A stretch of DNA of 64,000 nt, taken from assembly GCF_044647545.1 (NCBI RefSeq), contig NZ_CP172818.1. One strand, 5' to 3'. Positions 21,156 to 52,909 of the stretch are shown here, in pieces; positions within the stretch are counted from its first letter, which is position 1, and every line of letters begins with the position of its first letter. The notes under the pieces were generated by a model. That model was not told the DNA's origin. It was given only the letters and a program-made list of their open reading frames with translations, and did no database searches. The translations under genes and the position numbers were made by a program. Source of the DNA: Escherichia coli. GTDB taxonomy: Bacteria; Pseudomonadota; Gammaproteobacteria; Enterobacterales; Enterobacteriaceae.

Positions 21156-22654
21156 CAGAAACGCTCCAGTTCAGGAAAAGGTAAATGACCGTGATGCACA
21201 TGCATGGCACCAAATTCAGCACAGCGGTGTAGCGTGGGAATGTTTTTCCCAGGGTTCAGCAAACCATCGGGGTCAAACGCCGCCTTGACCGCATGGAAGG
21301 TCGTGATTTCATCGCTGTTGAACTGGGCGCACATTTGATTGATTTTTTCTCGCCCGATGCCATGTTCGCCACTGATGCTGCCGCCAACTTCAACGCAGAG
21401 TTCGAGGATCTTCCCGCCCAGCTCTTCCGCGCGGGCAAATTCACCGGGTTCGTTGGCATCGAAAAGGATTAACGGGTGCATGTTGCCATCTCCGGCATGA
21501 AAGACGTTGGCAACACGTAAATCATATTGCTGCGATAAACGGGCAATGCCTTCCAGTACGCCAGGCAGGGCGCGACGCGGGATGGTGCCATCCATGCAGT
21601 AGTAATCCGGGGAGATACGTCCTACCGCCGGGAACGCATTTTTGCGACCGGCCCAGAAACGTACGCGCTCTGCTTCGTCCTGTGCCAGACGGACGTCAGT
21701 CGCGCCCGCTTTCAACAAGATGTCGTTAACCCGCTCGCAGTCTTCCTGTACGTCAGACTCCACGCCGTCCAGCTCGCATAACAAAATCGCTTCGGCGTCG
21801 ACGGGATAACCGGCATGAATAAAATCTTCCGCCGCGCGGATCGACAGGTTATCCATCATCTCCAGCCCGCCGGGGATAATGCCATTGGCGATGATGTCAC
21901 CAACCGCAAGTCCGGCTTTTTCTACCGAGTCAAAGCTGGCTAACAGAACCCGCGCCACGGGCGGCTTCGGCAGCAGTTTTACCGTCACTTCGGTGGTCAC
22001 GCCGAGCATACCTTCCGATCCGGTGAACAGCGCCAGCAGGTCAAAACCAGGTGAATCCAGCGCGTCCGATCCAAGCGTCAGTGCCTCGCCGTCCAGCGTT
22101 TGCACTTCAATTTTCAGCAGGTTATGTACGGTCAGACCATATTTCAGGCAGTGGACGCCGCCGGCATTTTCAGCCACATTGCCGCCAATGGAACAGGCGA
22201 TTTGTGAGGAAGGGTCCGGTGCGTAGTAGAGATTATGCGGTGCAACGGCCTGGGAGATCGCCAGGTTACGCACGCCTGGCTGCACGCGCGCGCGGCGACC
22301 AACGGGGTTAATGTCGAGGATCTCTTTAAAGCGCGCCATCACCAACAACACACCTTTTTCCAGCGGCAGCGCGCCACCAGAAAGCCCGGTGCCTGCACCA
22401 CGGGTCACCACCGGTACACGCAGGCGATGGCAGACAGCCAGAATCGCTGTCACCTGTTCCATTTGCTTAGGCAGAACAACCAGTAATGGACGCGTGCGAT
22501 ACGCGCTCAACCCGTCACACTCGTAAGGAATGATCTCCTCATCGGTATGCAGGATCTCAAGTCCAGGGACATGCTCACGCAGTGCCATCAGTACCGATGT
22601 GCGGTCGACATCGGGTAAAGCGCCATCAAGACGCTCTTCGTACAAGATGCTCAT
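21155..22654 (-). CDS. glcD: Glycolate oxidase subunit GlcD (FAD-linked oxidase), 499 aa
   Basis: ORF track 499 aa beginning MSILYEERLDGALPDVDRT... Confidence 0.95.
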   Translation of the reverse strand: MSILYEERLDGALPDVDRTSVLMALREHVPGLEILHTDEEIIPYECDGLSAYRTRPLLVVLPKQMEQVTAILAVCHRLRVPVVTRGAGTGLSGGALPLEKGVLLVMARFKEILDINPVGRRARVQPGVRNLAISQAVAPHNLYYAPDPSSQIACSIGGNVAENAGGVHCLKYGLTVHNLLKIEVQTLDGEALTLGSDALDSPGFDLLALFTGSEGMLGVTTEVTVKLLPKPPVARVLLASFDSVEKAGLAVGDIIANGIIPGGLEMMDNLSIRAAEDFIHAGYPVDAEAILLCELDGVESDVQEDCERVNDILLKAGATDVRLAQDEAERVRFWAGRKNAFPAVGRISPDYYCMDGTIPRRALPGVLEGIARLSQQYDLRVANVFHAGDGNMHPLILFDANEPGEFARAEELGGKILELCVEVGGSISGEHGIGREKINQMCAQFNSDEITTFHAVKAAFDPDGLLNPGKNIPTLHRCAEFGAMHVHHGHLPFPELERF

Positions 22655-22904
22655 GAGTAGGCTTCGCTTTGTTGTGTTGTGTGGCAGCTGATTTTTGCGC
22701 GCTGCTTCTGTGAACAGTTATTAAGCGGGCTTTTCGTTTTCGTCTATCTCTTTAGCTACCGGTCAGACCATTTTTTTTCCAGCTCTGTGACCTTGTCTTG
22801 GTTAACTCAATGTTAAATTGATGTAACATAATCACTTACGTGATGTGCGTGTTTTGCGAGTTAAGAACAGAAAAATTGGTCCTACCTGTGCACGAGGTCC
22901 GGGA
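22655..22904. promoter_or_regulatory. Divergent glcC / glcDEFGBA promoter-operator region
   Basis: 250-bp intergenic region between divergently transcribed glcD and glcC; established site of GlcC-dependent activation; individual sites not resolved here. Confidence 0.5.
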
Positions 22905-23669
22905 ATGAAAGATGAACGTCGCCCTATTTGCGAAGTGGTTGCAGAGAGTATCGAACGGTTAATTATCGACGGCGTACTGAAGGTCGGTCAGCCGCTTCCC
23001 TCGGAACGTCGACTGTGTGAAAAGCTCGGCTTCTCACGCTCCGCACTGCGTGAAGGGCTGACCGTGCTGCGCGGGCGCGGGATTATTGAAACGGCGCAGG
23101 GTCGCGATTCTCGTGTCGCACGGCTTAATCGGGTGCAGGACACCAGCCCGCTGATCCATCTGTTCAGTACGCAGCCGCGAACGCTGTACGATCTGCTCGA
23201 CGTTCGCGCATTACTGGAGGGCGAATCGGCAAGGCTGGCGGCAACGCTGGGAACGCAGGCTGATTTTGTTGTGATAACCCGCTGTTATGAAAAAATGCTC
23301 GCCGCCAGTGAGAACAACAAAGAGATTTCGCTGATCGAACATGCGCAGTTGGATCACGCTTTCCATCTCGCCATTTGTCAGGCTTCTCACAATCAGGTGC
23401 TGGTGTTTACGCTGCAATCATTGACCGATCTGATGTTTAATTCAGTGTTTGCCAGCGTAAATAATCTCTACCATCGACCACAGCAAAAAAAGCAGATCGA
23501 TCGCCAGCATGCGCGGATCTACAACGCGGTGTTGCAGCGGCTGCCGCACGTCGCCCAGCGCGCAGCACGCGATCATGTGCGGACCGTGAAAAAGAATCTC
23601 CACGATATCGAGCTGGAAGGCCACCATTTGATTCGCTCGGCGGTGCCGCTGGAGATGAACCTGAGTTAG
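22905..23669 (+). CDS. glcC: GntR/FadR-family transcriptional activator of the glc operon, 254 aa
   Basis: ORF track 22845..23669; native start at the Met giving MKDERRPICEVVAESIERL... with N-terminal winged-helix region. Confidence 0.93.
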   Translation: MKDERRPICEVVAESIERLIIDGVLKVGQPLPSERRLCEKLGFSRSALREGLTVLRGRGIIETAQGRDSRVARLNRVQDTSPLIHLFSTQPRTLYDLLDVRALLEGESARLAATLGTQADFVVITRCYEKMLAASENNKEISLIEHAQLDHAFHLAICQASHNQVLVFTLQSLTDLMFNSVFASVNNLYHRPQQKKQIDRQHARIYNAVLQRLPHVAQRAARDHVRTVKKNLHDIELEGHHLIRSAVPLEMNLS

Positions 23670-23675
23670 CTGGTA

Positions 23676-24950
23676 TTAAATCTGCTTTTCATACAATCGG
23701 TAACGCTTGTACGGCTCCGCCCCAATGCGTTCCAGCATGTTATTCATGCCTGTATTGGTTTCGAGGATCCATGACATCTCCAGCGCATCGATCTTCCGGC
23801 GGGCAAACGGATCGCGTAAGGCTTCAATCAATAACAGCGCAATCACCGGGCCGATGCGGCTGAACTGATACTCGTCGCGCACGCCCATCAGCGGTACTCG
23901 CGCAGTTCGCACACCGCTGACTTTCAAACGCCACAGCAATTTTGCCCAGCCGAAGGGAAAGAGCGATCCGTTCAGATCGGCAATCGCCTCGTTGATGTTC
24001 GGCAAGCCGACAATAAACGCGCAGGGTGCAGAATCAATCTCAGCGATATAGATCATATCGTCCGGCACCAGATATTTAAGTTGATCGCCCATGGTCGCGA
24101 ATTCATGTTCGGTAAACGGCACAAATCCCCAGTTGTGCTGCCAGCCAGAGTTGAAAATCTCACGCAGGATCTGCATCTCTTCGGCAAACCGCTGACGATT
24201 GATGCAGCGAATGGTCACCTTTTTGCGCACCTGATCCATCAGTTTTTTTAGCGCCGGAGAGAAAGTGAGATCGGTTCGCTGCATCCACCACGCCAGTAAA
24301 TCAATGCCTTTGTGATAACCCAGTTGTTCAATATGCGCGGCATACCACGGTTTGCCGTGTGGCATCATCGCACAGGGTGGTGTGTCAAAACCTTCAATCA
24401 GTAATCCGCTTTCCTGATTGATATTCAGGCTGAAAGGACCGCTGATCTTACTTGCACCTTGTGACTTCAACCACGCTTCCGCTGCGCCAAACAACGCGGC
24501 AAAAACCTGCGGATCATCAATGGCGTCAATCATGCCGAAATGACCGGTATCTTTGCCGTAACGCTCGCGGTGCAAGGTATCTATTTGCGCGGTAATACGC
24601 CCAACTATCTGCCCCGCTTTTTTTGCCACCCACGCCTGCCAGATGATATGGTCCGTCCCCGGATTTTTCGCAGACAAATGCTCGTTGCGTTCAATGAATA
24701 AAGGGGGTATCCAGTTTGGATCGTCGGGATAAAGTGATGACGGAAAAGCGATAAATGCCTTAAGGTCATTTTTATTAAAGACGTCGCGAAACTGAAGACA
24801 ACCGGAAATTAACTTAAAACACTCCGAACGAATTTTATAATAAAAAACGATCGCGTCATACCGAAACAATACGATTCGTAAGTTTTTTTCCATATCCTTA
24901 TCGCGTCCCTCATTCAATCGTTTTAAGCCAGGATCCCTGGTTAACGGCAA
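23676..24950 (-). CDS. yghO: YghO (GNAT-like acyltransferase fold protein); 5' end uncertain
   Basis: 424-aa ORF convergent with glcC; its start abuts the anomalous block; I recall yghO being a pseudogene interrupted by IS5 in K-12, and no IS5 is present here. Confidence 0.7.
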   Translation of the reverse strand: MPLTRDPGLKRLNEGRDKDMEKNLRIVLFRYDAIVFYYKIRSECFKLISGCLQFRDVFNKNDLKAFIAFPSSLYPDDPNWIPPLFIERNEHLSAKNPGTDHIIWQAWVAKKAGQIVGRITAQIDTLHRERYGKDTGHFGMIDAIDDPQVFAALFGAAEAWLKSQGASKISGPFSLNINQESGLLIEGFDTPPCAMMPHGKPWYAAHIEQLGYHKGIDLLAWWMQRTDLTFSPALKKLMDQVRKKVTIRCINRQRFAEEMQILREIFNSGWQHNWGFVPFTEHEFATMGDQLKYLVPDDMIYIAEIDSAPCAFIVGLPNINEAIADLNGSLFPFGWAKLLWRLKVSGVRTARVPLMGVRDEYQFSRIGPVIALLLIEALRDPFARRKIDALEMSWILETNTGMNNMLERIGAEPYKRYRLYEKQI

Positions 24951-24989
24951 TACGAACGATTCCTCACGTCCATTCGAACGATATCCCTA

Positions 24990-25500
24990 CCTCCATACAC
25001 CTCCCACACCCTTTCCGGCTCATTATCACCCACCGAAGAGGCTAATCACGTCTATAACACGACGGCATTAAATTACCCGCGACCGCATCGCTCCTCTACC
25101 ATGAAGGGACGGTCGGCTTGACCCCCCCACGCACCATAGATTACGCACCAATCACTCCCCAAGCTTAAAGACATAAAAACCGGCACCTCCCCCGCCCATG
25201 AATTTCCACGCCCTGAATGAAAGAAATCCCTGAACTGGATCTTTCTCTGCGCGTCGCGGTATTTCAGAACCCATCTCCAGAACAGACTCTATCAATTTGC
25301 CATGCCCCACATTAACTATGATCATTCAACCCACGCATACAACGAATACATTTTAACCACCCTTTTAACATACCAACCGATTCCTCCACTCCACCGAAAA
25401 TTATACGCCTACCTCCATACACCCCCACACCGTTTCCCGTCATTACACCCACCGAACACCGAACACTCTATAACACACGCATTAAATACCCCCGACCCCT
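24990..25500. repeat. C/A-rich non-coding segment with two imperfect ~100-bp direct repeats (about 24990-25090 and 25408-25500)
   Basis: CTACCTCCATACACC..CCCACACC..TTTCC..TCATTA.CACCCACCGAA...TCTATAACAC..CATTAAAT..ACCC occurs twice at roughly 80 percent identity by eye; no ORF support. Confidence 0.4.
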
Positions 25501-26024
25501 CTCCCCTTTCACCAATAATTCGGCTTTCTCCTGACCCCCCCACCACATAATTACATAATTTACTCCAATTAAAATCATAAAAAATCCGGCATTTCTCCTC
25601 TATGAATCCACTAATAAAAAATCTAATGGATCTCCCCTTACAAACACCCAAACAACCATCAATAATTTATTAAACAAACTCAACACAAAAATTCACTTTT
25701 ATGAACTCTTAACGAATATCCACACCAAACAGTAAACCCCTCAAACACGCCTATCGATTTTCCGTCAAGTAAAACTTTTGAACAGATTGAAAATCCGCAG
25801 TGAAGCATATCCGGCGCGGCGGAATTTAGTGCAGATGCTTCATCACTCCTCTCAACCTTTAACGAAATCCAATCTCAAATCAGTAAACCTCCCCGGTCAA
25901 AACGCCTATCACTTCTCAACTGCGGCAAAGCTGGAAATTATTAAATCCAGCACTGTGAGCGGTGTATGCCTTGGCGGAACAGTTTCGGTAAGCCACCTCA
26001 TCTCCGGTCCGTCTATGACTTACT

Positions 26025-26426
26025 TTGGCGACCAGTTCGCAAGCAATTGCCGCGACGGGCTGGTTAGACACCGGCGACCTCGGTTATCTGCTGGACGGTT
26101 ATCTGTATGTCACCGGACGCATTAAAGATCTGATTATTATTCGTGGCCGTAATATCTGGCCGCAGGATATTGAATATATAGCGGAACAGGAACCGGAAAT
26201 TCATTCTGGCGATGCGATTGCTTTTGTTACCGCCCAGGAAAAAATCATTTTGCAGATCCAGTGTCGGATCAGCGACGAAGAACGTCGCGGGCAGGTTTCC
26301 CACCCCGCACGCGGCCAAAATGAAAATGGAGTTACCCCTGCTAGCGATTTTCGATCTCTCCACACCACACCCTTTTACGGCCCCTCCAACCCCACCCGTG
26401 CGCAAGCGGAAACACGTAAACATTAG
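26025..26426 (+). pseudogene. Fragment of a fatty acyl-AMP ligase / adenylate-forming enzyme (C-terminal subdomain only)
   Basis: ORF translation contains WLDTGDLGYLLDGYLYVTGRIKDLIIIRGRNIWPQDIEYIAEQEPEI, matching the conserved TGDLG...TGRxKDLIIxRGxNxYPQDIE motif of FAAL/acyl-CoA synthetases; the N-terminal ~450 aa of such enzymes is absent. Confidence 0.55.
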
Positions 26427-26558
26427 CGTAGGCTTCTAGTCTCAATGTTCATGAACCCCAATCATTAATCAAACTGACACTGTGACGGTGGCGAGCGGTA
26501 CTAGCTTTAAAGGTATTAATATTATAACCTGCTCGCCCGCGGCTTTCACGTTCGCGCA

Positions 26559-26840
26559 TTGACGCGTACTGCCCGCGCTCACGTCAATGATAATCTCCCC
26601 TCGGTGGGGGGTTGGCTGCAGGATACTCATTCACTTAGCGAGCTGGTTGCCGGAGCCAGCGTAGTGGTCCATTGCGCCGGGCAAGTGCGCGGGACAAGCA
26701 CCACGCTAATCGACCAGTCTAACCTTACCAAGCACCAAAGAGAGCTGCTAGCGCCAACGGTGTCCGTTTTTTTCTACCCTTTTCTCTTTCTATCTTCAGT
26801 TCCCCCGTACCCAAACGCGCTATACTGCTCTGAGCAATGA
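26559..26840 (+). pseudogene. Possible NAD(P)-binding (SDR/epimerase-like) fragment
   Basis: Short ORF with ...LVAGASVVVHCAGQVRG... resembling a Rossmann-fold motif; weak. Confidence 0.2.
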
Positions 26841-27764
26841 CAATCAGTAATGGCGGACCAAATGACGCTGGTGGTGGACCACCTTACAGTCGGCGTTTTT
26901 CCCGCGAAAAAAGTGTTTAAACCCCGCGTTGACGGGATGAAACCCCTCTTTCTGTGACTACTTGGCGCCCTACAGACACAGCTTTCTTTGCCGGATATCA
27001 CCCTTTTTTTTCAGCAGGTGACCAATTAAGCCGGAGAAGCGCCTCAATGATACAGACGCAAAAATACAAGCAAACCTATGAATTATGCGATGGCGTCGCC
27101 GGCGGCTATGACTGGCAACGCGTACAGCAACTTGCCGCCGACGCCCGTTGCGGTTCCCTGGATGGTGTTCATTGCCGGTACTCACCGGCCTTGCGGATAT
27201 CAGTACCGCGTTGAGTCGCCTGGCAGGTAAAGAACCTATGCTCTACCCGTCGAAAATTCGTGAATTAACCCACGCTACCTTTCGTCAACTTCTAACCCTG
27301 TTGTTGAAGATAGTTAGCCTGGTCCCCGGATTACCCAGCAAGACGTATTACTTAACTTGTTTTTTGGTCTGTCACGTTTATATGTTTAATAATGTAATAA
27401 TAATAAATTGTAAAATTTCCTTTTTACAGGATTTTGTCGATATAGTGTAGTTATTCCGAAAGAGGGGGATCTCGTAAGCGCTATAGCCATTGCGTCGATG
27501 AACGTGCTGGGACTCTTTCTAATGGTTGGAGCCCGTAACGATGTTTCCATACCGATTCATATTTTGATGGCTATTAATACCCCTGCGGATGTCATAACCA
27601 CTGTGCTATCATGGGTGGCGCTTCTATCATGGGGCTATAAGGTAGATGTGCGCGACTAGCTAGAGGGCGACTGCGCTTTCGAGCCACCGCATTTTAGCCA
27701 TTACGGGTTACTCACCTGTTTATGATGTTTATTTCCGCCACCGAAGGCCGGATCGGCAATAAAA

Positions 27765-28259
27765 ATGATATCTGGCCGGGACCGATTTTTCGGTTTTGTA
27801 ACCTTTAATCATGATGCCATAGGCGAAGGTCAGGCCGCGTTAGCGGCCCAAGGTACCGGCACCACCGGTTCTCGTATGGCAAACGGCAGTTATGCGCCGC
27901 ACCTGGCGTTAGAGAAAGAGATTGCCGAGTTTTTCAATCGCCCTACCGCTATCGTTTTTTCAACCGGTTATACCGCTAATTTAGGCGTCATCAGCGCACT
28001 TGCCGACCATAACGCCGTGGTGTTACTGGATGCCGACAGCCACGCCAGTATTTATGACGCCTGTTCTCTCGGTGGCGCGGAAATTATTCGTTTCCGCCAT
28101 AACGATGCTAAAGATCTGGAACGGCGGATGGTTCGCCCCGGTGAACGGGCGAAAGAGGCGATTATCATCGTTGAGGGTATCTACAGCATGCTCGGTGACG
28201 TTGCGCCGTTAGCGGAAATTGTTGATAAACATCTGCGTGTGGGTGATTTTTGTTTCTAG
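27765..28259 (+). pseudogene. Fragment of an alpha-oxoamine synthase (BioF/KBL/serine palmitoyltransferase family, PLP-dependent)
   Basis: ORF translation GSRMANGSYAPHLALEKEIAEFFNRPTAIVFSTGYTANLGVISALADHNAVVLLDADSHASIYDACSLGGAEIIRFRHNDAKDLERRM...IIIVEGIYSMLGDVAPLAEIV matches the conserved N-terminal/middle part of AOS enzymes; the region with the catalytic lysine is missing. Confidence 0.6.
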
Positions 28260-28423
28260 TAAGGCCCTTTGGTTTGCGTTGTAGGCGGAAAGGGGGGGCG
28301 AACTGCTTAAACTTGTCGGGGTTGAGGTTATTGTGATTTTTATCGTCGGCACCTTCAGTAAGTCTCTCCCCTAGTTTCGCTTTTTTTGTCTGGTTTCGAA
28401 AGAGGTAAAAGTGGTGCGATGCC

Positions 28424-28468
28424 ACCCCCCCCCATATTTTTTTCCCCCCTCTCTTTCCCCCCCCTCGA
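28424..28468. repeat. Homopolymer-rich low-complexity tract (poly-C, poly-T)
   Basis: GCCACCCCCCCCCATATTTTTTTTCCCCCCTCTCTTTCCCCCCCC; atypical for E. coli. Confidence 0.6.
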
Positions 28469-28918
28469 CGCGCCCGTGCCGTTAACAATGAGCGCCATAC
28501 CACCAGAGCCGGGGCAAAAGCTGATGGAGAAGGATAATCACCTGTATCACTGTGTCGATATACAAGGATTGGATTTTAGGTTACATATAAGTATTAGAGT
28601 GCTGGTAATAATCATAATCAAATAGGACGGGGTACGTATCCGGCTCTAGCGTGTGTTTCTTTCGTTGATCTTTTATGTGCATCTTATCCTCCCCCCTGCC
28701 GGGCATCACGCCGTCGCGCTGTACCCTAAAGCGTGCACACTGCTGAGAGTAGACAAATCGATGCCATCATTCAGGCATTTGCTACTCTGAAGCAGTAATG
28801 TGAGCCCGCCGTGGTGTTGCGCCACGGCGGGTTTAATGTGTTGTGTGATATCACTTACACCAGGCTCAACGCCACCAGCACAAACGCTATCGGTAAACCG
28901 AGCGCGGTAACAGGTGCG

Positions 28919-29997
28919 TCACGCAAATAGCAATCCCAGATTGACCATGATTTGATAGCTGATCCAGGTGAGTAAGCCAACGATGACACCTACAGCGAGA
29001 CGGCTACCCATCCCTCGGGAGCGCGGGGCGCTAAAAATAAACTGGACAGCCAGGAAAAATAACCCCAGGGGTAGGAATGGTTTCCCCAGTTTTTCCAACA
29101 TGGCAAGGCGTTATCCGTGGTGGGTTGCCCCGTTTCCTGGCAATTATGGGAGTTATGGATTAAGTGGAGGGACGGAAAATATATTCCCCCGTCGTTATAA
29201 CTTTTCAATTTTTATACGTGTAAAGCGCTTGCCCGGGGCAATTTTATGATATTTTCCGAGTGTTTTTGCGCCTCTCCCCTATTTTTTCTTTCACTATTAC
29301 ACCATGCAGGATCCACGTTTTGTCGTCTTCAATGGTGGCACTGCGTGCATAAATGTAGGATTCGAGCGAAAGATTACCACGAGATTGTAATATCTCTCCG
29401 CCCACAGGGGCTCCCCGTGCTTGTTGCGCGTTTACCGCGACAAATTTTCTACCCCGCCCCTCCCACAGCGCATTTTGGGGGTAGTGACCTCCTCCCCCCC
29501 ACGGCGCTGGCAGTCGATTTGATTTGCAGCGCCTGTTGCTGCAATGGCGACGCCACCCACTCATCTATCGCGCCTAACGAAACAGTCCACAATATCCCGG
29601 CAACCAGCGCCACCAGTGCAATACGGAAGATAGAAAACCCAGTGCTGCGAATGGCGGTAAGCTCACTGTTTTTCGATAACTGCCCCAGGCCAACAATCCC
29701 TCCCAATAATGCGATAAACGGCGAAAGTTCGACCAGTGTACGCGGTAAGGTCATCAGCACCACCAGCACCGCCTGAGTCCAGCGATAACCGCCCGGGCTG
29801 ACATCATCCAGTTCGTTAATCAGGTTGAAGGTGGTAAAAAGCGGCAGCAATAGCCCTGCGGCGGCGGCAAAACCGAGAAAGAGATGACGGATTAAATAGC
29901 GACTGAAAACGTTCTTCGGGAAAATTTCTGGAGCAAAGAGAAGTCGCGTGCGACCAGCATCAGCAGGCCCATTAGCATGAGTCCGGGTACTAACCAC
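28919..29997 (-). pseudogene. LptF/LptG-family (YjgP/YjgQ) permease homolog, fragmented (N-terminal and C-terminal pieces in different frames)
   Basis: ORF 29449..29997 has FSRYLIRHLFLGF...LPRTLVELSPFIALLGGIVGLGQLSKNSELTAIRSTGFS, an LptG-like N-terminus; ORF 28919..29101 resembles the C-terminal TM segments; frames are broken. Confidence 0.45.
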
Positions 29998-30981
29998 AAA
30001 CCAGGAAGGATGGGGACGCGTTTGCGCCCGTTAGCGCACTCGGCAGACGTCGCCGCCATAAAAAATGGCAATAAACAGCAACGTCAGTGGCAATAACGTT
30101 GTAAAATCGCCCTTGCCGCGGTTTTACCCGACTTAATGAAATGGCCAGCAGCGCCATCAACAATGCGGTCAGGCCACGGCTTTGTCGCCATTGCAGTTCG
30201 GCATGATCGGCAGGAAAGGCGGAGCGCGCCAGCTCCGTGACCGATTTTGCTTTGCGTTTGACGTTAGGGCTTTGATCCAGCGGATTCAGATGTAATTGCA
30301 GATTACGGTAGATCTGTTCGTTGTCGTCACGCCCCTGATGATCGAGAAGATAGGCGGTGCCATTCAACAAAATGATCGTTGGTTAGTTGAGTGGTCAACC
30401 ACACCAATCGAACGGACGCGGGAAAAACGTGTGCGATCGGTAGGAGAAGGATAAATCAGTGCGTGAGTCAGTCGAGCATTTATTTTATTAACCGACCGTC
30501 AAAGGAACATTCGTTCGTTAGTTTTCGTTTGTATTTTATTTCTTCCCCAACAAGTGGAGATCCACCAGCTACGGCTACGGCTGTTCCAGCCGATAAAAAT
30601 TCTGAGAATCCCACGGCCGACGATCCAACGACGGAAGGGGGATAAAAATACTTATTGGTATTATCAGAAAATGAAGGGCGGCTTTCAACCGTCGCCCAGG
30701 GCCCCCCCCGAGAGAGAGCTGGAGGTTATTAGCGGGTAGATATCCGTCCGACCGAGAGTCCAACCGACAGATACATACCGACAGGCAAGTACATCCCCAT
30801 CGCGAGCAGTACGCTGTATGTAACGATCGCTATCCCGAACATCAAGAGCTAAGGTCCCATTTGCCGCTTCGGTCAGATAACGCTGTGCGGAGTAGCTGGC
30901 GAAAATAAAGATCAGAAAACCGACGATAATCAGCACCAGACGGCGCGTACCACGCATGATGTAGTGTTCAACCAGCTTCAT
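29990..30981 (-). pseudogene. Second LptF/LptG-family permease homolog, fragmented (tandem with the downstream copy)
   Basis: ORF 30685..30981 starts MKLVEHYIMRGTRRLVLIIVGFLIFIF (LptF-like N-terminus); ORF 29990..30370 has AELQWRQSRGLTALLMALLAISLSRVKPRQGRF matching the conserved NPRQGR region; frames are broken. Confidence 0.45.
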
Positions 30982-31011
30982 CTCACTAACACCCTCAATC
31001 CTTTGAATTTT

Positions 31012-31573
31012 TTATTCATTGATCAGTTTCTGCGCCAGCGCAATGACATGATCTACCTCTTCCGGCGTCAGGCTGCCGTCCTTTGCCCACTGAATTTGCC
31101 CGTCTTTATTCAGCACCAGAATGGTTGAACTCTGCTCCGGCAACCGCCAGGCAACGCGTCCCAGTCCATTGCCGTCAATAACGAATTGCGCCCACGGATA
31201 GCGGCGTTTATTTTTTTCGATTTTGCCAACGACAAAATAGCCAGTACCAAAGATGGCATCATCGGTGTTCACAATGGTGGTGGGCTGAAAACGATCCTGC
31301 GGAAAGTTTGCCGCTTCAACCGCTTTAATTAACAGTGGCTTTTTTTTTTTCGCGGCCACTCACCCGGCGCTATATTCGGTATAACGCGGTTTTCCCCCGC
31401 GATGTGTGCTGTTCCCCACTTTGTGGTGTGTATTGTCGTCGCTCTATTCAGAAGGATCGCCCCGTTCCTGGGTATTAAACGGGGGTAACCGTTTTGCCAG
31501 TGACAAAATTGTGTGCCTGCACACCCTGGGCTAAGAGCATGATAATCAGCGCAATAATCAAACGAGATGACAT
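31012..31573 (-). pseudogene. YtfJ-family periplasmic protein homolog, frameshifted near a poly-T/poly-A tract
   Basis: C-terminal ORF 31012..31359 has ...TTIVNTDDAIFGTGYFV...YPWAQFVIDGNGL...LVLNKDGQIQWAKDGSLTPEEV matching E. coli YtfJ as I recall it; a signal-peptide-like N-terminus MSSRLIIALIIMLLAQGVQAHNF begins at 31573 in another frame; total span fits a ~185-aa protein. Confidence 0.55.
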
Positions 31574-32675
31574 CATTGCTCCGGTTATAGCGGAAAACGC
31601 GAAATCAGCAGCTCTAAGCGCTGGCGAATATCGCTATCCAGCGCCACCGGTGCATTATACGACCGGGCGGTTTTCCTAATAATCCCCACCATTGTGGCCG
31701 TGTTTTCCCCCATCAGGCCATTAATGGCGGCGAGGAAGCGGGAAATCTTTTATTGCTTTTGTTTATCAAGCGATCTTAAGGTGTCGTAATAAGAAACCTG
31801 CTGACTGATGATTTTTCGCACATCATGAAATTCCCTGCCGGTTAGTCGCGGTTTGGCAATTATCTTTTCATGTGAATTATTTTTTTTCGATAAAAATAAA
31901 AAAACTTCCGATTTTTGAATTGGTAAGGCTTAATGAAAATTCCACCAAGGACAAGACCGAAAAGTTTAATAAAACCCTAAACAATTTCCCTTAAACCAAC
32001 CCATTATTTTCTTTACCTTTAGGAAAACCTCCTGGAAACGGCCCCAAAAAAACGTCCTTTTTCCGGTAAAAAAATCCCCTCTTATTTGATAGTAAATACA
32101 GCCAATGCACAAAATTCAGGCGCTTTCAGCTCTCTTTTATGATTTTATTGTTCATCCGCAGTAAGATTCACCTCATTGCCTTTTTTCTGTTTTCATAGTA
32201 AACGCACCAACTCATTGAGATTAATGAGACTGAGTTAGAAGTGTAGCCAGTACTTGTAATTAATAATATGATTGGGTAAATATAATGTAATGCTAGACGC
32301 CACACTAAACTGACCAGCGCCGCCATCATATTATTCTACTCAACCGAAACAAAGATACCTCCCCTCGCGCGAAAAATGTAATATTTTCTTTATGATTACT
32401 ATTCCGCTCCGTTATCAAGATAAAGAAAGGAATGGCGCTGAAAAAATGCCGTCAAGGTTGGAGAGAACGAGAGCACCAGATATAGACAACCGCCATCGAA
32501 AAAAGCAAATCCCACCCCGACACGCAAACAACTACAAACAGATGAACAGCAATACGAAACTATACCGATGATGTCATGTTTCGCCACGATTGAGGCGATG
32601 GTTTCCCACGAAAAACCCTTTTTCCCCATCATACAATACTCCTGTGGGAAAAGCGCGCTGTTCCCCGCATCGAAA

Positions 32676-33791
32676 TCAAAGACTCCGGGAACCACATCGA
32701 AATACAATTGCGCCCAGCATCACCTGAATCAGGTCATACGCTTCGAGATACTTAACGCCAAACACCAGCGCAATAAGCGGCTTGCCGACGATCAACACCG
32801 CGAGCGCCACCAGAATACCGATTCCGCCCGCCAGTAAACCTGACTTCACGCCTAACAACCACGGTCTGGTGGTGCGCGGATCTAAACGCATCACCTCTGG
32901 GTAAAAACTTTTGCCCAGTAAACCCGCTGGCGTTCCGGCGGCGTCGAAGAATGTCATGGCGATTTTAAATAACCCGGCGGCAGCGGGTCCTAACACGATC
33001 CCCACCAGCACTGTGCTGCACGAGTTACGCGCCGACCAGATGGAGTGGGCAATGTTGGTTGACCAGACAAAACTCCACGCGCCTTTAATGTGTCGGGCAG
33101 ACTCAAACAGATTCAATTTGAAGGCGTTATGGATATTTCTGCGGCGTAATTCGCGCGCGGCAAACCACCAGTACATGGTGCCGCCAACCAGATTCGACAC
33201 GTACCAGGCAATAACAAAACCCGCAAAACCAAAGTCAAAATACCAGGCTACGACGCTCCCCGCTGCGCGCAGAAAAGGTTTCGTCGCTTGCTGTACAGCA
33301 ATTAGATCGAAGCGATCTACCGCACGCAGAATGCCGGTCGGCGTGGAGGAAGCCATTGAAGGAATGAGCGTGCAATACAGCGCTGCCAGCCAAAAGCTTT
33401 GGTCATCCAGACCTAATGAATGGGAAAGAAAAGGGAGTAAGGCAATGCCGCCGACAATCGCCACCGCGCCGCTGACGATATCCAGCGAGAAGGAAAATGA
33501 GACGACATTGCGAAATTGCTGCGGATTATTGTTGGTCAAGGCTGGCGTTCCGTACTGCACCACCAACTGCCATGTCTGAAACTTAATAAAATCGCTGATC
33601 GACTTGGCGTACGATTGCACAATCACCAGTACGCCAAACATGGCGGGCGTCATCCCTTTACCGGCACACGAGAGCGCCAACAGACCCAGTAAAGCGCTCA
33701 CGACATTACTGGAGCCTAACCAGGCGCTATTGCGAATAATGGTGCGAAACGCGCCATCTGCAAACCAATGTTTGATGTTAAAACCCGCCAA
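32676..33791 (-). CDS. yghQ: Polysaccharide-transporter/flippase-like inner membrane protein YghQ; 3' end possibly disturbed
   Basis: 371-aa polytopic membrane ORF; its C-terminus borders the anomalous block, and a further out-of-frame ORF follows at 32399..32707. Confidence 0.85.
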   Translation of the reverse strand: MAGFNIKHWFADGAFRTIIRNSAWLGSSNVVSALLGLLALSCAGKGMTPAMFGVLVIVQSYAKSISDFIKFQTWQLVVQYGTPALTNNNPQQFRNVVSFSFSLDIVSGAVAIVGGIALLPFLSHSLGLDDQSFWLAALYCTLIPSMASSTPTGILRAVDRFDLIAVQQATKPFLRAAGSVVAWYFDFGFAGFVIAWYVSNLVGGTMYWWFAARELRRRNIHNAFKLNLFESARHIKGAWSFVWSTNIAHSIWSARNSCSTVLVGIVLGPAAAGLFKIAMTFFDAAGTPAGLLGKSFYPEVMRLDPRTTRPWLLGVKSGLLAGGIGILVALAVLIVGKPLIALVFGVKYLEAYDLIQVMLGAIVFRCGSRSL

Positions 33792-33836
33792 TTCAGCCTG
33801 ACCTTATCGTTGATAGTAAAAAGTATCCCGCCAGCC

Positions 33837-34595
33837 TTAAGTTAAACTTCGGCGGTCAGAAACGATGGCAACCAGAGAAACCGCCTTCTGTGCCTGTTCC
33901 AGCACTTCGCTGTAAGGCGCTCTGGAATCAATCTCAAGAATTTTTGTGCCGTTATAGCCAATCTTCGACATGACGCCGATTTTGTCCTGCAATTCGGCAT
34001 AGTCATGGTCAGGCTTGCGGGAAATGGCAGTATCAATATCAATCCCCAAACGAATGATTAATTCAGGACGGTATTGCGCCATTTGTTGGTATAAACGCCG
34101 TTCGCGCTGCGCCAGAAACATGCTGATTTTCCCGGTCGCACGTTCGACGCCGATCCCCGGTCCGTCATAATAAAAGCCCGAAATTTCAGCCTGCGGGAAG
34201 CGATCGCTGACCACCAGAACGCCACTTTGCGCCAGTCGCTGAACCTTGCGTAGATTCGCCATTCTTCGCAGCGAGAAGCAGTACATAATCACCGCCGCCC
34301 ATAGCGCTGGAGATTTGGTTTTCATGCTTTGGGTTTTCGATGATTTGGCCGCCAGTCGCCGTTCGAGCCAGACGCCAACCAACGGCAATCGTTTGATTTT
34401 GTCGCCGTCTTCGCCCGAGAGCAGCCCCAGATAGCGGCGCTCGGTTTGCCAGTGTTGTTGCAGCGATTTCACCAGATCGGTGGTCAGTGTGGATTTACCG
34501 GTACCATCACACCCGACCACCGCAATCAGCCCCGGAATGTAGTTGGGCTGCGGCGCGGTTGTACTATTAACAGTTTGTGTTTGTAGTGCGTCCAT
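33837..34595 (-). CDS. yghR: P-loop NTPase family protein YghR, 252 aa
   Basis: Walker A motif GCDGTGKST near the N-terminus; paralogous to yghS and yghT. Confidence 0.9.
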   Translation of the reverse strand: MDALQTQTVNSTTAPQPNYIPGLIAVVGCDGTGKSTLTTDLVKSLQQHWQTERRYLGLLSGEDGDKIKRLPLVGVWLERRLAAKSSKTQSMKTKSPALWAAVIMYCFSLRRMANLRKVQRLAQSGVLVVSDRFPQAEISGFYYDGPGIGVERATGKISMFLAQRERRLYQQMAQYRPELIIRLGIDIDTAISRKPDHDYAELQDKIGVMSKIGYNGTKILEIDSRAPYSEVLEQAQKAVSLVAIVSDRRSLT

Positions 34596-34626
34596 TCGTT
34601 AAATCATCCCCTATCCATTTTGGTGA

Positions 34627-35340
34627 TCAGGAAAGCGCAGCGTGAATTGCGCGTAGTGACGCTTGCAGAATTTCATCGGCTGGTTGCCGACCATCCAGTT
34701 CAAGGATCTTTGCGCCATTGAATGTCAGTTGCGGCGTAACGGCGATTTTTTCCTGTAACGCTGCCAGTTGGTGGTCAGGTTTACGCGCAAACGCGGTTTG
34801 TTCATCAATGCCAAGACGAATCAACAATACGGGCAAATAAGACGCCATCCATTGGTACAGCTTCAGCTCGCGCTGCCTTAACATTTTTATCCAACCGTTA
34901 CCGCCCGTGGTTTTTGCCAATTGCGGGCCATCAAAGCGAAAACCCGGCACTTCAACCTGCGGGTAGCGGTCGGTGATGAGCAGGTAGCCTTGCTGGCTTT
35001 TACACAACATTTTGCGAAACTTGTACGCCCGCCAGCAGGAAAGCAGATAGATAACCAGCGCAGTCATATTGCCAGGCGGTGTGGAGGGCTTTTCGTGCAC
35101 ATGTGCCGCTTTACTTCGCAGATAACGCCCAAAAGGTGCGCCAATAACAGGGAGCTGTGAAATCCATTCGCCAATTCGCCCGGACGATTGCCCGAGATAA
35201 ATGTGTTCTGTTGGCATTGTTGCTGCCAGTTCATTTACCAGGCTTGCCGTGAGGGTCGATTTACCTGAACCATCACATCCTACAATGGCAATAACACGCA
35301 CTGGCGTGGAATTAATTATTGACATATTACGTTGATTCAC
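34627..35340 (-). CDS. yghS: P-loop NTPase family protein YghS, 237 aa
   Basis: Walker A motif GCDGSGKST; paralog of YghR. Confidence 0.9.
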   Translation of the reverse strand: MNQRNMSIINSTPVRVIAIVGCDGSGKSTLTASLVNELAATMPTEHIYLGQSSGRIGEWISQLPVIGAPFGRYLRSKAAHVHEKPSTPPGNMTALVIYLLSCWRAYKFRKMLCKSQQGYLLITDRYPQVEVPGFRFDGPQLAKTTGGNGWIKMLRQRELKLYQWMASYLPVLLIRLGIDEQTAFARKPDHQLAALQEKIAVTPQLTFNGAKILELDGRQPADEILQASLRAIHAALS

Positions 35341-35514
35341 GAAAAACCCGGCAGCAAATAATGTATTGAATATTACGTGGTCCGTGCTCAGAATATCCGT
35401 TCAACCTTATTGTGACAATGGTTAATTGTGACATTGACCTGAATTACGCTTTCATCAAAAACATATTAACCAAATAAATATTTTGGATGGATATTTAAAT
35501 TTAAGGATATATTC

Positions 35515-36207
35515 ATGCAGTCAATAATACCTCCATTAATTGCCGTTATTGGTAGCGATGGTTCAGGCAAGTCAACGGTGTGTGAACATCTTATTACCGT
35601 TGTCGAAAAATATGGTGCTGCCGAAAGAGTTCATTTAGGAAAACAGGCCGGAAATGTCGGTCGTGCAGTGACAAAATTACCGTTGATGGGAAAATCCTTA
35701 CATAAAACAATTGAACGAAATCAGGTGAAAACAGCAAAAAAATTGCCTGGCCCTGTTCCGGCGCTGGTAATTACAGCGTTTGTCGCCCGTCGCTTACTGC
35801 GCTTTCGTCATATGCTTGCCTGTCGTCGTCGCGGGTTAATTGTTCTAACCGACCGTTATCCTCAGGACCAAATTCCTGGTGCTTACGATGGTACGGTGTT
35901 CCCACCTAACGTTGAAGGTGGTCGTTTTGTCTCATGGCTGGCAAGCCAGGAACGTAAAGCGTTTCACTGGATGGCGAGCCATAAGCCCGATCTGGTCATC
36001 AAACTCAATGTCGATCTGGACGTGGCCTGCGCGCGTAAGCCTGACCACAAAAGAGAATCGCTGGAAAGGAAGATAGCCATAACGCCACAGTTAACCTTTG
36101 GTGGTGCACAACTGGTTGATATCGATGCTAATCAGCCACTGGAAAAGGTGCTGGTTGATGCAGAAAAAGCGATTACGGATTTTATGACCGCGCGTGGTTA
36201 TCACTAG
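35515..36207 (+). CDS. yghT: P-loop NTPase family protein YghT, 230 aa
   Basis: Walker A motif GSDGSGKST; third paralog, divergently oriented. Confidence 0.9.
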
Positions 36208-36219
36208 TCAAAAATGGAA

Positions 36220-36248
36220 ATGCCCGATCGCCAGGACCGGGCATTTTC
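36220..36248. terminator. Bidirectional terminator between convergent yghT and pitB
   Basis: ATGCCCG...CGGGCAT inverted repeat followed by TTTT. Confidence 0.55.
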
Positions 36249-36255
36249 AGGAAGG

Positions 36256-37755
36256 TTAAATCAACTGCAATGCTATCCAGTACAACCCACCAGAAAGAAA
36301 AATCGCCGCCGGTAAAGTAAACACCCACGCCATCAGGATGCTGGTTACCGTTTTACGCTGTAACCCACCGCCGTCCACCACCATCGTCCCTGCTACTGCA
36401 GACGAGAGTACGTGTGTTGTGGAGACGGGCATCCCAATATAACTGGCAAGGCCGATAGACACTGCCGCCGTCATTTGTGCCGCCATGCCTTGCGCATACG
36501 TCATGCCGCGCTTACCAATCTTCTCACCGATGGTCATCGCTACACGACGCCAGCCAATCATGGTGCCGATGCCGAGCGCCAGTGCTACCGCCATGATGAT
36601 CCACACCGGTGCGTACTCAATGGTGCTTAACATATCGCTGCGCAGTTTTTTCAGCAGGTTCTGGTCTTCTTTACTGACGCCTGGCAGTTTCGCCAGCTTC
36701 GCGGAGGTATCAGAGATGCACAGCATAATGCGGCGCAGCTGGCTGCGCTGACTCACGCTTAACGGCTCGTAACTTTCCATATTGCCTGGCAGCATCGTTT
36801 TAACGCGCGCAATCGCATCAAAGGTATTTGCCGGATGACAGTGAAACTCTGTTACTTGCGTGCCATCAGTCGATGTCGCAGGCAATGGAGGTTCCATCGT
36901 AATCAACTTCTGCGGCAGTTCAGGATGCTGTTGCAGGTAGTGTTCGAAGTTGGTGACGGCATCGCGGGTACGGGTAATTTCATAGCCGGACGCGTTCATA
37001 TTGACGACGAAACCAGCAGGGGCAATCCCCACCAGTACCAGCATCACCAGGCCGATCCCTTTCTGCCCGTCGTTCGCGCCGTGCGAAAACGCCACGCCCG
37101 CAGCGGAAACAATCAGCGCAATACGCGTCCAGAATGGCGGCTTACGTTTGCCTTTTTTCTTTTTGCGATCTTCCGGAATGCGGTGAATACGGTCACGCTT
37201 TTTCGTCCCGCTCCAGAAACGGCGCAGCAGGAAAATCAGACCACCCGCAATGACCAGGCCGACGATAGGGGAAACAATCAGCGAGGAGAAAATTTTGGTC
37301 ACTTCACGCAGGTTTAACGCATCCATCACCGATGAGCCGGTTAACAGCGCGTTGGTTAAACCGATGCCGATAATCGCACCAATCAAGGTGTGCGAACTGG
37401 AGGCCGGTAAACCAAAGAACCACGTTCCCAGGTTCCAGATAATCGCCGCCAGCAGCATAGAAAAGACCATCGCCAGGCCGTGAGTTGACCCCATATTCAA
37501 CAACAAATCGGTTGGCAACATATGGACAATGGCATAGGCAACGCTAAGTCCGCCTAGCAATACGCCAAAAAAATTAAAAAATGCCGCCATCACCACAGCA
37601 AGTTGTGGTTGCATGGCACGAGTATAAATAACGGTTGCCACCGCATTCGCCGTGTCATGAAAACCATTGATTGCTTCGTAGAACAACACAAATGCCAGAG
37701 CAAGTAATAACAAAAGCCCTGTGTATATATCAAGGCCAACAAATAAATTTAGCAT
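36256..37755 (-). CDS. pitB: Low-affinity inorganic phosphate transporter PitB, 499 aa
   Basis: ORF track 499 aa polytopic membrane protein, PiT family. Confidence 0.95.
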
Positions 37756-37996
37756 ATATTAGATTACGCCATTTTGAATTTACGAACGGACGCATTATCA
37801 GTGACTTTAACGGCATGGGCAAAGTGAAATATCATTTTTTAACGATAAAAAGCGTGTTATTTCTTGTGTATCAGACAATAAGCATTCATTCAAAACCTTT
37901 AGAAATAATCAAAACACATGTATTCTGCTGGTTAATATATTCACATATAAAATGAATAAATATTGGAATATATAAATATTGAATGTTTTGATTAAT

Positions 37997-38031
37997 CCCC
38001 GTACTGATTATTCTTCATAATCAGTACGGGG
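37997..38031 (-). terminator. Putative terminator downstream of gss
   Basis: Inverted repeat CCCCGTACTGATTA...TAATCAGTACGGGG immediately 3' of the gss stop. Confidence 0.5.
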
Positions 38032-40977: not shown

Positions 40978-41093
40978 GGCAACATTGGCACTTATCCTAT
41001 TACCATAAACATTTTAACTAACCCCAAAACCACATTTCATTAACTTTTTCCCTCCCCAATTTTTTTTTTTTCCTAAAAAACACCCCCCTTCCC

Positions 41094-41150
<57 letters not shown>

Positions 41151-41169
41151 ATTTTCGTGCAGCGAGTCC

Positions 41170-41520
41170 CATTTCCCCCGATAAGACCGGTATTTCTTCA
41201 GGCCACAGGAGACTTCAGGCCAAGCTGCTGCATCAGTTTTCGCACCGTTTTGCCACTGAACTTGAGACCTCTTTTCTGAAGTTCACAGTCGATCCGCCGG
41301 TACCCATAACATCCCCGGTGTTCATGGAAGATGGAGGGGATGGGCTGTTTCACATCACAATACTTTTCTTAGCCTTCTGCAGTGACAGCTGATAGTACAG
41401 CGTGCTTCTGGCCAGCCCTGCGAAGCCTTTAACAGGTCAGACTGGCAGTGTCCGCACCTCAGGTTCTGGATGACTTTCGCTTTTTCTCCAGCTCCAGGCG
41501 CTTTTTTCCCAGGAGATCCT
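41170..41520 (-). mobile_element. IS3-family transposase remnant (OrfB N-terminal region, frameshifted and truncated)
   Basis: Minus-strand translations give ...GLARSTLYYQLSLQKAKKSIVM and EHRGCYGYRRIDCELQKRGLKFSGKTVRKLMQQLGL, matching the conserved N-terminal motifs of IS3-family OrfB; no DDE catalytic domain and no inverted repeats follow. Confidence 0.5.
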
Positions 41521-42037
41521 CCTGCATGCCTTCCAGATATGCATTTCCTGCGCAAAAATACCCCCCTCCTTCTTCTCTCTTTCCGCCCTCTGTTTCCCCT
41601 CCTTTTCTCGGGTATCAACAAAACGGTCATTCTTTTCTCCCTCCCGCGCCTAAAAAAGCCCTCACCACCAGTTTGTGTCGCCTTTTTCCTGTTTTCCGCC
41701 GTGTGGTGGCCGGGAATGTTAAAGCCGGCCGGCCGCGGGGGAGAGACAGAGAAAATGCGAGAAAACAAAAAAAAACACGCAAAGTCTCTCTAGAAGAAAA
41801 TAGCCGCCCCCGTTCCTGCAATCCAGGAGCAGAAGAGCGAAAAAAAAAAAAAGAATAAAGGGGGGAGGGGGTGGTATAAAAAAGTTAAAATTGTTGTGGT
41901 GAAAAAAGGAGGCCAGACGGGCCGGTGAAAAAATTCTGTGGGGAAGACTATTTTAAATAAAGGTTTTGTAAAAAACACCACCTGATGTGATATGATATTC
42001 ACTACAAGTGTGGGGTGGAGTTTACGCGCCCTAATCA

Positions 42038-52877: not shown

Positions 52878-52909
52878 GCCCGGTTGTGAAAAGCAACCGG
52901 GCTTTTATT
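52878..52909. terminator. Bidirectional rho-independent terminator between convergent yghA and exbD
   Basis: GCCCGGTTG-tgaaaag-CAACCGGGC stem-loop flanked by A-run and T-run. Confidence 0.65.

Follow-up and report, generated by a model that had tools for sequence, protein, structure and literature searches.

The abnormal block between yghO and yghQ in the window (by which we mean the whole stretch of 64,000 nucleotides of Escherichia coli DNA that was analysed) is the E. coli gene cluster for sphingolipid synthesis and export, which has been published previously and is not new. Judging from sequence comparisons, we put at roughly 93% the probability that the strain has an ordinary intact sphingolipid locus and that its copy in the deposited record was corrupted by technical noise of assembly or consensus. 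The main value of the finding is in quality control of deposited sequence. One chromosome-scale E. coli contig (4,499,902 bp; WP_400164855.1, WP_400164856.1) appears to be garbled wherever it departs from K-12, and public databases thereby acquire false pseudogenes and singleton "proteins". The biology of the E. coli sphingolipid locus is better studied on intact copies from other genomes than on this window.

Results

Intact versions of the cluster, which the original prediction had proposed to look for at this locus, are present, and carry known annotation, in 4184 of the 5426 complete genomes of E. coli; the other 1242 give no match. About three quarters of the complete genomes have the cluster; K-12 does not. 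Such wide occurrence of an annotated cluster is what the original prediction itself had said would remove novelty, and novelty is not supported. In ECONIH1 the counterpart of window positions 24779-32703 is an intact cluster of 8.35 kb (L001, 4458-12827) with the gene order yghO-FAAL-epi-ACP-spt (FAAL, fatty acyl-AMP ligase; ACP, acyl carrier protein), where the ACP gene lies immediately upstream of spt and FAAL is nearby. Its Spt scores 599 bits on the NCBIfam equivalog NF047599 (cut-off 500) and its FAAL 872 bits on NF006624 (cut-off 600). The LptG-like and LptF-like permeases pass the equivalogs TIGR04408 (307 bits, cut-off 240) and TIGR04407 (319 bits, cut-off 230), and the YtfJ-family protein reaches 216 bits in NCBIfam (cut-off 151). 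An Spt of the proteobacterial group and a dedicated ACP gene with a FAAL-type acyl-ACP synthetase close by are features of Rhodobacteria-type sphingolipid synthesis loci (Spt, AcpR, AasR, Epi/CerR and Aca/bCerS), and the intact locus has them. The SDR/epimerase matches of the epi/cerR reductase of the intact locus are weak and sub-threshold. YghO has no match among Pfam or NCBIfam models, the 274-aa protein belongs to no Pfam or NCBIfam family, and no ABC ATPase is annotated within the intact ECONIH1 locus.

When the window was searched with the intact ECONIH1 proteins (tblastn), every gene of the cluster was found, split over several frames. The broken pieces that had been recognised earlier (FAAL, an NAD(P) enzyme, an alpha-oxoamine synthase, two LptF/LptG permeases and YtfJ) are all present; an ACP gene and the gene for the 274-aa protein had been overlooked. 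The remnants of FAAL, epimerase, ACP and spt stand in the same order as in ECONIH1. The observation is thus confirmed for the sequence as given, but the extent of the abnormal block, first stated as 24951-32675, is corrected here to 24779-32703, so that it reaches into yghO (5' end) and yghQ (3' end). The parts of the block as written in the window are as follows.

24779..32703, no strand: noisy block in which patches matching ECONIH1 at 100% identity are interspersed with others at 39-75%
23676..24818, minus: yghO (= aca, ECD_02850; putative sphinganine N-acyltransferase), intact as far as 24778
24779..26467, plus: intergenic sequence and fatty acyl-AMP ligase / acyl-ACP synthetase gene (aasR), 5' part garbled
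24979..25578, plus: FAAL segment present twice in noisy form, at ~24979-25178 and at ~25379-25578 (spacing 422 nt)
26464..27351, plus: epi/cerR, a gene of the NAD-dependent epimerase/dehydratase family whose product is a putative reductase of 3-ketosphinganine or oxo-ceramide
27382..27629, plus: specialised acyl carrier protein gene acpR, 66% nt identity (tblastn match 27447-27620)
27629..28798, plus: serine palmitoyltransferase gene spt (tblastn match 27629-28795)
28833..29916, minus: LptG-like permease (LptG2 type), broken (tblastn match 29913-28882)
29913..30981, minus: LptF-like permease (LptF2 type), broken (tblastn match 30981-29916)
31012..31573, minus: periplasmic protein of the YtfJ family at 92.6% nt identity, with three frameshifting indels (tblastn match 31573-31015)
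31585..32396, minus: 274-aa hypothetical protein, broken (tblastn match 32389-31588)
32396..33791, minus: yghQ (MOP-flippase-like), 449 aa in intact genomes, a 371-aa ORF left here

It had been stated that no gene of the block is intact, and this holds: as written, each has between 1 and 39 frameshifting indels and as many as 7 stops in frame, and there is no ORF longer than 182 aa between yghO and yghQ. About 13 codons at the 5' end of yghO fall inside the noise, which leaves a spurious 424-aa ORF ending at 24950; so do about 300 nt at the 3' end of yghQ (32396-32703, ~87 codons). Of AasR/FAAL only aa 416-546 are recognisable, at 26031-26417 (tblastn, ECONIH1 query). The first 1.27 kb of the block (24779-26045) are a garbled, non-collinear 5' half of FAAL, depleted in G (13%) and including the duplicated segment. 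Both noisy copies of that segment correspond to ECONIH1 L001 ~5372-5611, and deletions relative to the intact gene are common to both. Matches to epi/cerR are spread over three frames (26511-27333, tblastn). In spt the central 304 nt are perfect (27823-28126), and noise affects the remainder, where 7 stops in frame and 8 frameshifting indels are found; its fragment 27765-28256 gives a partial match of 232 bits on NF047599. Two fragments of the LptF-like permease have been deposited as proteins, WP_400164855.1 and WP_400164856.1. The HMM searches that had been suggested as a check agree with this picture: ORF fragments of the window match the NCBIfam models for FAAL, Spt, LptG, LptF and YtfJ, all below the curated whole-protein cut-offs.

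Outside the block, identity to ECONIH1 is 100.0% in the left flank (20000-24778) and 99.9% in the right flank (32704-38000). The block itself is about 83% identical to the cluster in the 4184 genomes that bear it, all identities being 80-90% or lower and none above 90%. Along the block, identity jumps abruptly between perfect stretches, of which there are 22 (33-500 bp), and stretches at 39-75%. Zero differences are seen in 39 of 135 bins of 50 columns, where 0.0016 such bins are expected, and the index of dispersion of differences is 7.6. The substitutions have a ts/tv of 0.57 and are uniform over codon positions (374:367:384, p=0.82), whereas a control pair of natural sequences for this locus, ECONIH1 and 2017.11.01CC, has 2.89 and 20:6:83, with no indels. 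New bases duplicate a neighbouring base 576 times against 494 expected (homopolymer smearing); the window has 15 homopolymer runs of at least 7 where the intact copy has 2, and runs of at least 8 number 6 against 0. From 26046 to 32703 the noise is dominated by substitutions, 1133 of them, with a net length change of -3 nt. Just one NCBI contig, of 4,499,902 bp, encodes the products of the noisy ORFs; three of these products are single-member clusters at 90% identity, and exact scans for noisy 67-73-mers in genome and metagenome contig collections gave no match.

Stretches of the window that match K-12 MG1655 are essentially error-free, and stretches absent from K-12 are all noisy. On the left, the noise of the main block sets in at the very base, inside yghO, at which the IS5 of K-12 starts; on the right it stops 20 nt short of the point where homology to K-12 returns. 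Noise is also seen at 40978-42031 and 61005-62019, and the boundaries of these two patches agree to within 1-3 nt with those of the other segments absent from K-12; of the six edges of the three patches, five lie within 3 nt of K-12 homology breakpoints. Junk of about 100 nt, made up of poly-C/T/A, is found in the two smaller patches along with poly-A extending over hundreds of bases; the runs of poly-C and poly-A are located at 41046-41150 and 61600-62000. Noise elsewhere in the window affects an IS3 copy and two unrelated genes, and the main block cuts through yghO and yghQ without following gene boundaries. A remnant of IS5 was sought in 24779-26045 by local alignment on both strands, and the score of 15 is that of shuffled sequence (15.3±1.9). 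The window combines the K-12 gspD-K deletion junction, lack of the pheV island and ECONIH1-type sequence, a combination seen in none of the 5426 complete genomes.

Discussion

Several explanations of the damage can be considered. The original prediction spoke of a pseudogenised island, that is, a locus decayed by natural mutation once selection was lost. Stops and frameshifts in all nine genes would agree with this, as would the lack of a match in 1242 complete genomes and the loss of the locus with IS5 in K-12, which makes it dispensable in the laboratory. However, neutral decay cannot set stretches of 33-500 bp that are 100% identical beside differences of 30-45%, and the spectrum is random-like (ts/tv 0.57 against a natural 2.9). 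The damage tracks the K-12 IS5 junction inside yghO rather than gene boundaries, an IS3 copy and two unrelated genes of the window bear the same noise, and there is no intermediate decayed allele among the 4184 complete genomes that have the cluster. The signature is non-evolutionary and confined to DNA that K-12 lacks, and we regard natural decay as very unlikely.

Recombination can yield a mosaic of identical and divergent segments, and the block could in principle be a divergent allele from a distant lineage, partly overwritten by E. coli-type segments. Yet the divergent patches show no excess of changes at third codon positions; stops and frameshifts in every gene mean that the patches are not functional orthologous sequence; the patches show the ECONIH1 sequence itself smeared into homopolymers; and recombination tracts would not be so small and so numerous as these patches, which have abrupt edges and can be as short as 12-60 nt. 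This makes such an allele extremely improbable. One might also imagine that the deposited sequence is correct and that acquired non-K-12 segments were scrambled patchily by some unknown targeted hypermutation or error-prone copying, with the core genome untouched. If so, the sphingolipid locus would be among its victims; we find this barely conceivable.

Since the errors are tied to absence from K-12 and not to gene structure, they point to an artefact of assembly or consensus. The suspicion of an artefact, which had been voiced from the start, is thus borne out by the mutation spectrum, the patchiness and the coincidence with K-12 absence. The duplicated FAAL segment, with its shared errors, also counts for an artefact; against it counts that the record has been through RefSeq processing, as the WP_ accessions show. 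The most likely cause would be an assembly guided or filtered by K-12, where insertions relative to that reference were supplied from data of very low quality, perhaps raw long reads or a degenerate consensus, and polished only in patches. A consensus of reads mapped to K-12 does not suffice as a full explanation: the sslE region is 88-92% identical to K-12, yet the window is perfect there. Nor does fill-in with raw nanopore or PacBio sequence alone fit noise that is dominated by substitutions and preserves length.

A variant of the artefact would be noise that comes not from the reads but from computation alone, such as a generative or neural consensus model might produce when it fills non-reference gaps. 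The progressive left-to-right collapse into poly-A and poly-C speaks for this variant, and so do a self-copied segment carrying shared errors, a length preserved almost exactly over 6.7 kb despite the 1133 substitutions, and the abrupt return of perfect sequence at anchors. On the other side, the sequence belongs to an NCBI/RefSeq genome record, and neural basecallers and polishers working on poor signal can degenerate similarly. We consider this variant possible and on the doubtful side.

Proposed working of the locus

On our preferred reading, that of an intact locus in a corrupted record, a working scheme can be suggested from the literature and homology. AasR, a FAAL-type ligase, would load a fatty acid onto the dedicated AcpR, and Spt would join acyl-AcpR and L-serine to give 3-oxo-sphinganine. 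This product is made by AasR, AcpR and Spt of E. coli BL21(DE3) when the proteins are overexpressed (PMC9386255). The Epi/CerR-type NAD-dependent enzyme would then reduce the keto group, and YghO (Aca) would N-acylate the product to dihydroceramide. Flipping of the lipid is probably the task of the MOP-type YghQ, and that of the LptF2/LptG2-type pair, with housekeeping LptB supplying the power, is probably to extract it towards the outer membrane. The original prediction had proposed condensation of an activated fatty acid with an amino acid, followed by export through LptF/G-like permeases and a flippase; this was right in kind, the block being a sphingolipid (dihydroceramide) locus.

Comparison with known systems

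The closest known counterpart is the locus of E. coli B / BL21(DE3), yghO(aca, ECD_02850)-aasR(ECD_02851)-epi(ECD_02852)-acpR(ECD_02853)-spt(ECD_02854), in which ECD_02850 and ECD_02852 received the names aca and epi (PMC9386255). Its position by yghO, gene order and protein families are those of the window, but the window copy is full of non-biological errors and has no gene intact as written. That paper covers the synthesis genes, not the downstream lptG/lptF-like, ytfJ, 274-aa, yghQ and yghRST genes. The yghO-IS5-yghQ junction of K-12 MG1655 lies at the same site and represents a natural, real loss of the locus: K-12 has a clean IS5-associated deletion truncating yghO and yghQ, whereas the window has the whole cluster, noisy and without similarity to IS5.

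In Caulobacter crescentus, CC_1152-CC_1168 comprise ceramide genes together with LptF2/LptG2/LptC2 and a putative flippase, CC_1166 (PMC11324152; bioRxiv 10.64898/2026.04.12.717747). Sphingolipid transport there needs the LptF2/LptG2 paralogs, in complex with LptB, and both points have been demonstrated in Caulobacter only; a pair of this kind inside a sphingolipid locus has been reported for gammaproteobacterial loci too (bioRxiv 10.64898/2026.04.12.717747). In the E. coli locus, too, genes for ceramide synthesis are accompanied by a second LptF/LptG pair as well as by a flippase-like gene; neither locus has a second lptB. Unlike that of Caulobacter, the E. coli locus lacks LptC2 and annotated genes for ceramide phosphoglycerate; it has in addition YtfJ, the orphan protein of 274 aa and three P-loop paralogs resembling dTMP kinase, YghR/S/T. 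By analogy with Caulobacter, the permeases of the E. coli locus probably handle sphingolipid rather than LPS. They reach the LptG and LptF equivalog cut-offs, as would be components of the canonical LPS extractor LptB2FGC, and differ from these in being extra paralogs that sit within a sphingolipid locus.

Nature of the block between yghO and yghQ

The damaged stretch between yghO and yghQ (24779-32703, here block 1) is very probably an assembly or consensus artefact; judging from the sequence, we would put the probability at roughly 0.93. Its decayed state is no real biological feature. The original prediction had described decayed remnants of a possible lipid or aminolipid synthesis-and-export cluster at 24951-32675. 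That broken pieces of a cluster lie there is confirmed, because tblastn recovers all cluster proteins of E. coli ECONIH1 (NZ_CP009859.1), our intact reference, in their proper order and each split across frames, and because ORF fragments of the window match the NCBIfam models for FAAL (fatty acyl-AMP ligase), Spt (serine palmitoyltransferase), LptG, LptF and YtfJ with scores below the whole-protein cut-offs. The longest ORF between yghO and yghQ in the window is at most 182 aa. The predicted block exists, but its limits were set too narrowly: the abnormal sequence also extends into yghO at its 5' end and into yghQ at its 3' end. Similarly, the gene families named are all found, but an acyl carrier protein (ACP) gene and a gene for a 274-aa protein, both inside the block, were missing from the list.

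Features of the locus
Window, 23676-24818, minus strand: yghO, its 5' end inside block 1
ECONIH1, first part: yghO, fatty acyl-AMP ligase, NAD-dependent epimerase/dehydratase family protein, acyl carrier protein, spt
ECONIH1, other strand: lptG-like, lptF-like, YtfJ family, 274-aa hypothetical protein, 449-aa yghQ, yghR, yghS
ECONIH1, last part: yghT, pitB

Intact ECONIH1 proteins against NCBIfam models (bits; cut-off; outcome)
Serine palmitoyltransferase, NF047599: 599; 500; passes
Fatty acyl-AMP ligase, NF006624: 872; 600; passes
LptG, TIGR04408: 307; 240; passes
LptF, TIGR04407: 319; 230; passes
YtfJ, TIGR01626: 216; 151; passes

Neither the 274-aa protein nor YghO matched any Pfam or NCBIfam family. 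The search for intact versions, proposed with the original prediction, gave a clear answer: megablast with 24951-32675 as query finds a homologous block, with its annotated genes intact, in 4184 of 5426 complete E. coli genomes. Identity to these is 80-90% or lower, and none exceeds 90%.

The damage coincides with DNA that K-12 lacks

Around block 1 the sequence is clean. Identity to ECONIH1, as to several other strains, is 100.0% on the left flank (20000-24778) and 99.9% on the right flank (32687-38000), and 5284-64000 without its three noisy patches matches ECONIH1 at 100.0%. Over its full length the window aligns collinearly with K-12 MG1655, except for three insertions in the window and one 240-bp stretch found only in K-12. 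The three noisy patches are exactly these three insertions. Block 1 starts at the base (24779) where K-12 enters IS5 and ECONIH1 enters the cluster, and it ends 20 nt short of 32724, where K-12 homology restarts. Block 2 (40978-42031) corresponds to an ECONIH1 IS3-family element in the yghU-hybG gap, copied noisily and at reduced length (1.05 kb vs about 1.4 kb). Its edges match the boundaries of the K-12-absent segment; it shows G-dropout and about 100 nt of poly-C/T/A junk (41046-41150), is near-perfect over 41151-41507 and then degrades progressively. Block 3 (61005-62019), between yqhH and ygiQ, copies two ECONIH1 hypothetical genes, RS17905/RS17910, in 1.0 kb vs 1.57 kb. Rightward along this patch the copy degenerates until hundreds of its bases are poly-A (52% A); at the very point where K-12 homology restarts, identity is 100% again. 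The edges of the noise thus follow K-12 breakpoints; to gene boundaries the noise is blind, since both yghO and yghQ are cut through. A further anomaly at such a breakpoint lies between yghA and exbD, where 52902-52904 has 5 nt fewer than ECONIH1 exactly at the site of K-12's extra 240 bp.

Where ECONIH1 has more DNA, the window has a K-12-like structure and lacks the pheV island (site 5284, upstream of yghD). The gspD-gspK deletion junction (6790-6791, gspL/gspC) is base-identical to K-12 over the 101 nt compared, and both its sides are 100% ECONIH1-type and 2-4% diverged from K-12. This combination of K-12 junction, absent pheV island and ECONIH1-type flanks occurs in 0 of 5426 complete genomes, among which the best single-piece matches reach only 97.0-97.5%, and so it suggests that the assembly may have been threaded on a K-12-like structure. 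A naive mapping consensus on K-12 might come to mind as the process, but the sslE region argues against it, being perfect in the window despite only 88-92% identity to K-12.

Character of the damage

Aligned base by base with ECONIH1, block 1 switches abruptly between perfect stretches of 33-500 bp and stretches of 39-75% identity. Given differences of 20% on average, 0.0016 of the 135 bins of 50 columns would be expected to be free of them; 39 are, and the index of dispersion comes to 7.6. The three codon positions are hit about equally often by substitutions (374:367:384, p=0.82), whose ts/tv of 0.57 is near the 0.5 of random base replacement. As a natural control, the same nine genes compared between ECONIH1 and 2017.11.01CC (98.8% identity) have a ts/tv of 2.89, differences spread 20:6:83 over the codon positions, and 9 kb free of indels. 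A pseudogenised island, as originally proposed, is strongly opposed by this spectrum and by perfect runs of up to 500 bp. The suspicion of an artefact, voiced at the same time, is borne out by the mosaic, the random-like spectrum, the smearing described below and the edges at K-12 breakpoints.

What process might have produced such noise? Typical raw long-read error would have a different profile from the one seen, which is dominated by substitutions and nearly preserves length (1133 substitutions and a net change of -3 nt over 6.66 kb). The noisy stretches resemble smeared ECONIH1 sequence, with bases replaced by a neighbouring base 576 times against 494 expected. Homopolymer runs of at least 7 number 15 in the window block vs 2 in the intact copy, and those of at least 8 number 6 vs 0. 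The first 1.27 kb is G-depleted (13% G), about 440 nt under its true length and non-collinear with ECONIH1; one FAAL segment is duplicated there, the copies lying 422 nt apart and having in common deletions of 1, 10, 9, 4 and 11 nt relative to the intact gene. In homopolymer collapse and self-copied segment, the damage resembles degeneration by a neural basecaller, a polisher or a generative process.

If the artefact reading is correct, the strain itself would hold an ordinary intact cluster. The K-12-homologous sequence would be accurate in the record, and the non-K-12 insertions would have been filled from very poor data and corrected only in patches.

Consequences for public databases

Exact noisy 67-73-mers were not found in the representative-genome or metagenome collections. 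Among ten ORF products tested from block 1 and its edges, eight are present verbatim in a collection of 15 billion proteins, each from exactly one NCBI contig (4,499,902 bp). Three noisy products are single-member clusters at 90% identity, and two are listed in RefSeq, as WP_400164855.1 ('LptF/LptG family permease') and WP_400164856.1 ('permease'). The noise is unique to one deposited E. coli assembly, which lies outside the RefSeq 'complete genome' set. Gene models made by noise are now in public protein databases; two false ones, known from the 4,499,902-bp contig only, are a YghO of 424 aa whose N-terminal extension is spurious (23679-24950) and a 371-aa truncated YghQ (32679-33791). The chief value of the analysis is its warning of a defective public assembly.

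Relation to known sphingolipid loci

Directly beside the sphingolipid locus are three intact P-loop paralogs, yghR, yghS and yghT (33837-36207), annotated as 'ATP-binding protein' or 'dTMP kinase' and present even in K-12. A role in sphingolipid head-group modification is a candidate function for them.

Most E. coli carry this cluster in intact form, and it has been described before. The original guess at its function (fatty-acid activation, alpha-oxoamine synthase, Lpt-like export and a flippase) was right in kind, as follows from the NCBIfam matches, the BL21(DE3) gene order and the Caulobacter LptF2/LptG2 locus, and had already been published. E. coli BL21(DE3) shares with ECONIH1 the order yghO-FAAL-epimerase-ACP-spt (ECD_02850-ECD_02854). 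There, a dedicated AcpR is acylated by AasR, acyl-AcpR is the preferred substrate of Spt, and the three jointly yield 3-oxo-sphinganine; ECD_02852 (epi) is the proposed keto-reductase and yghO (aca) the proposed N-acyltransferase leading to dihydroceramide (PMC9386255). Genes for LptF2/LptG2 and for a putative flippase are likewise part of the equivalent Caulobacter locus (PMC11324152). Caulobacter LptF2 and LptG2 form a complex that binds the housekeeping LptB, sphingolipid transport depends on both, and lptF2/lptG2 are also found in gammaproteobacterial sphingolipid loci (bioRxiv 10.64898/2026.04.12.717747).
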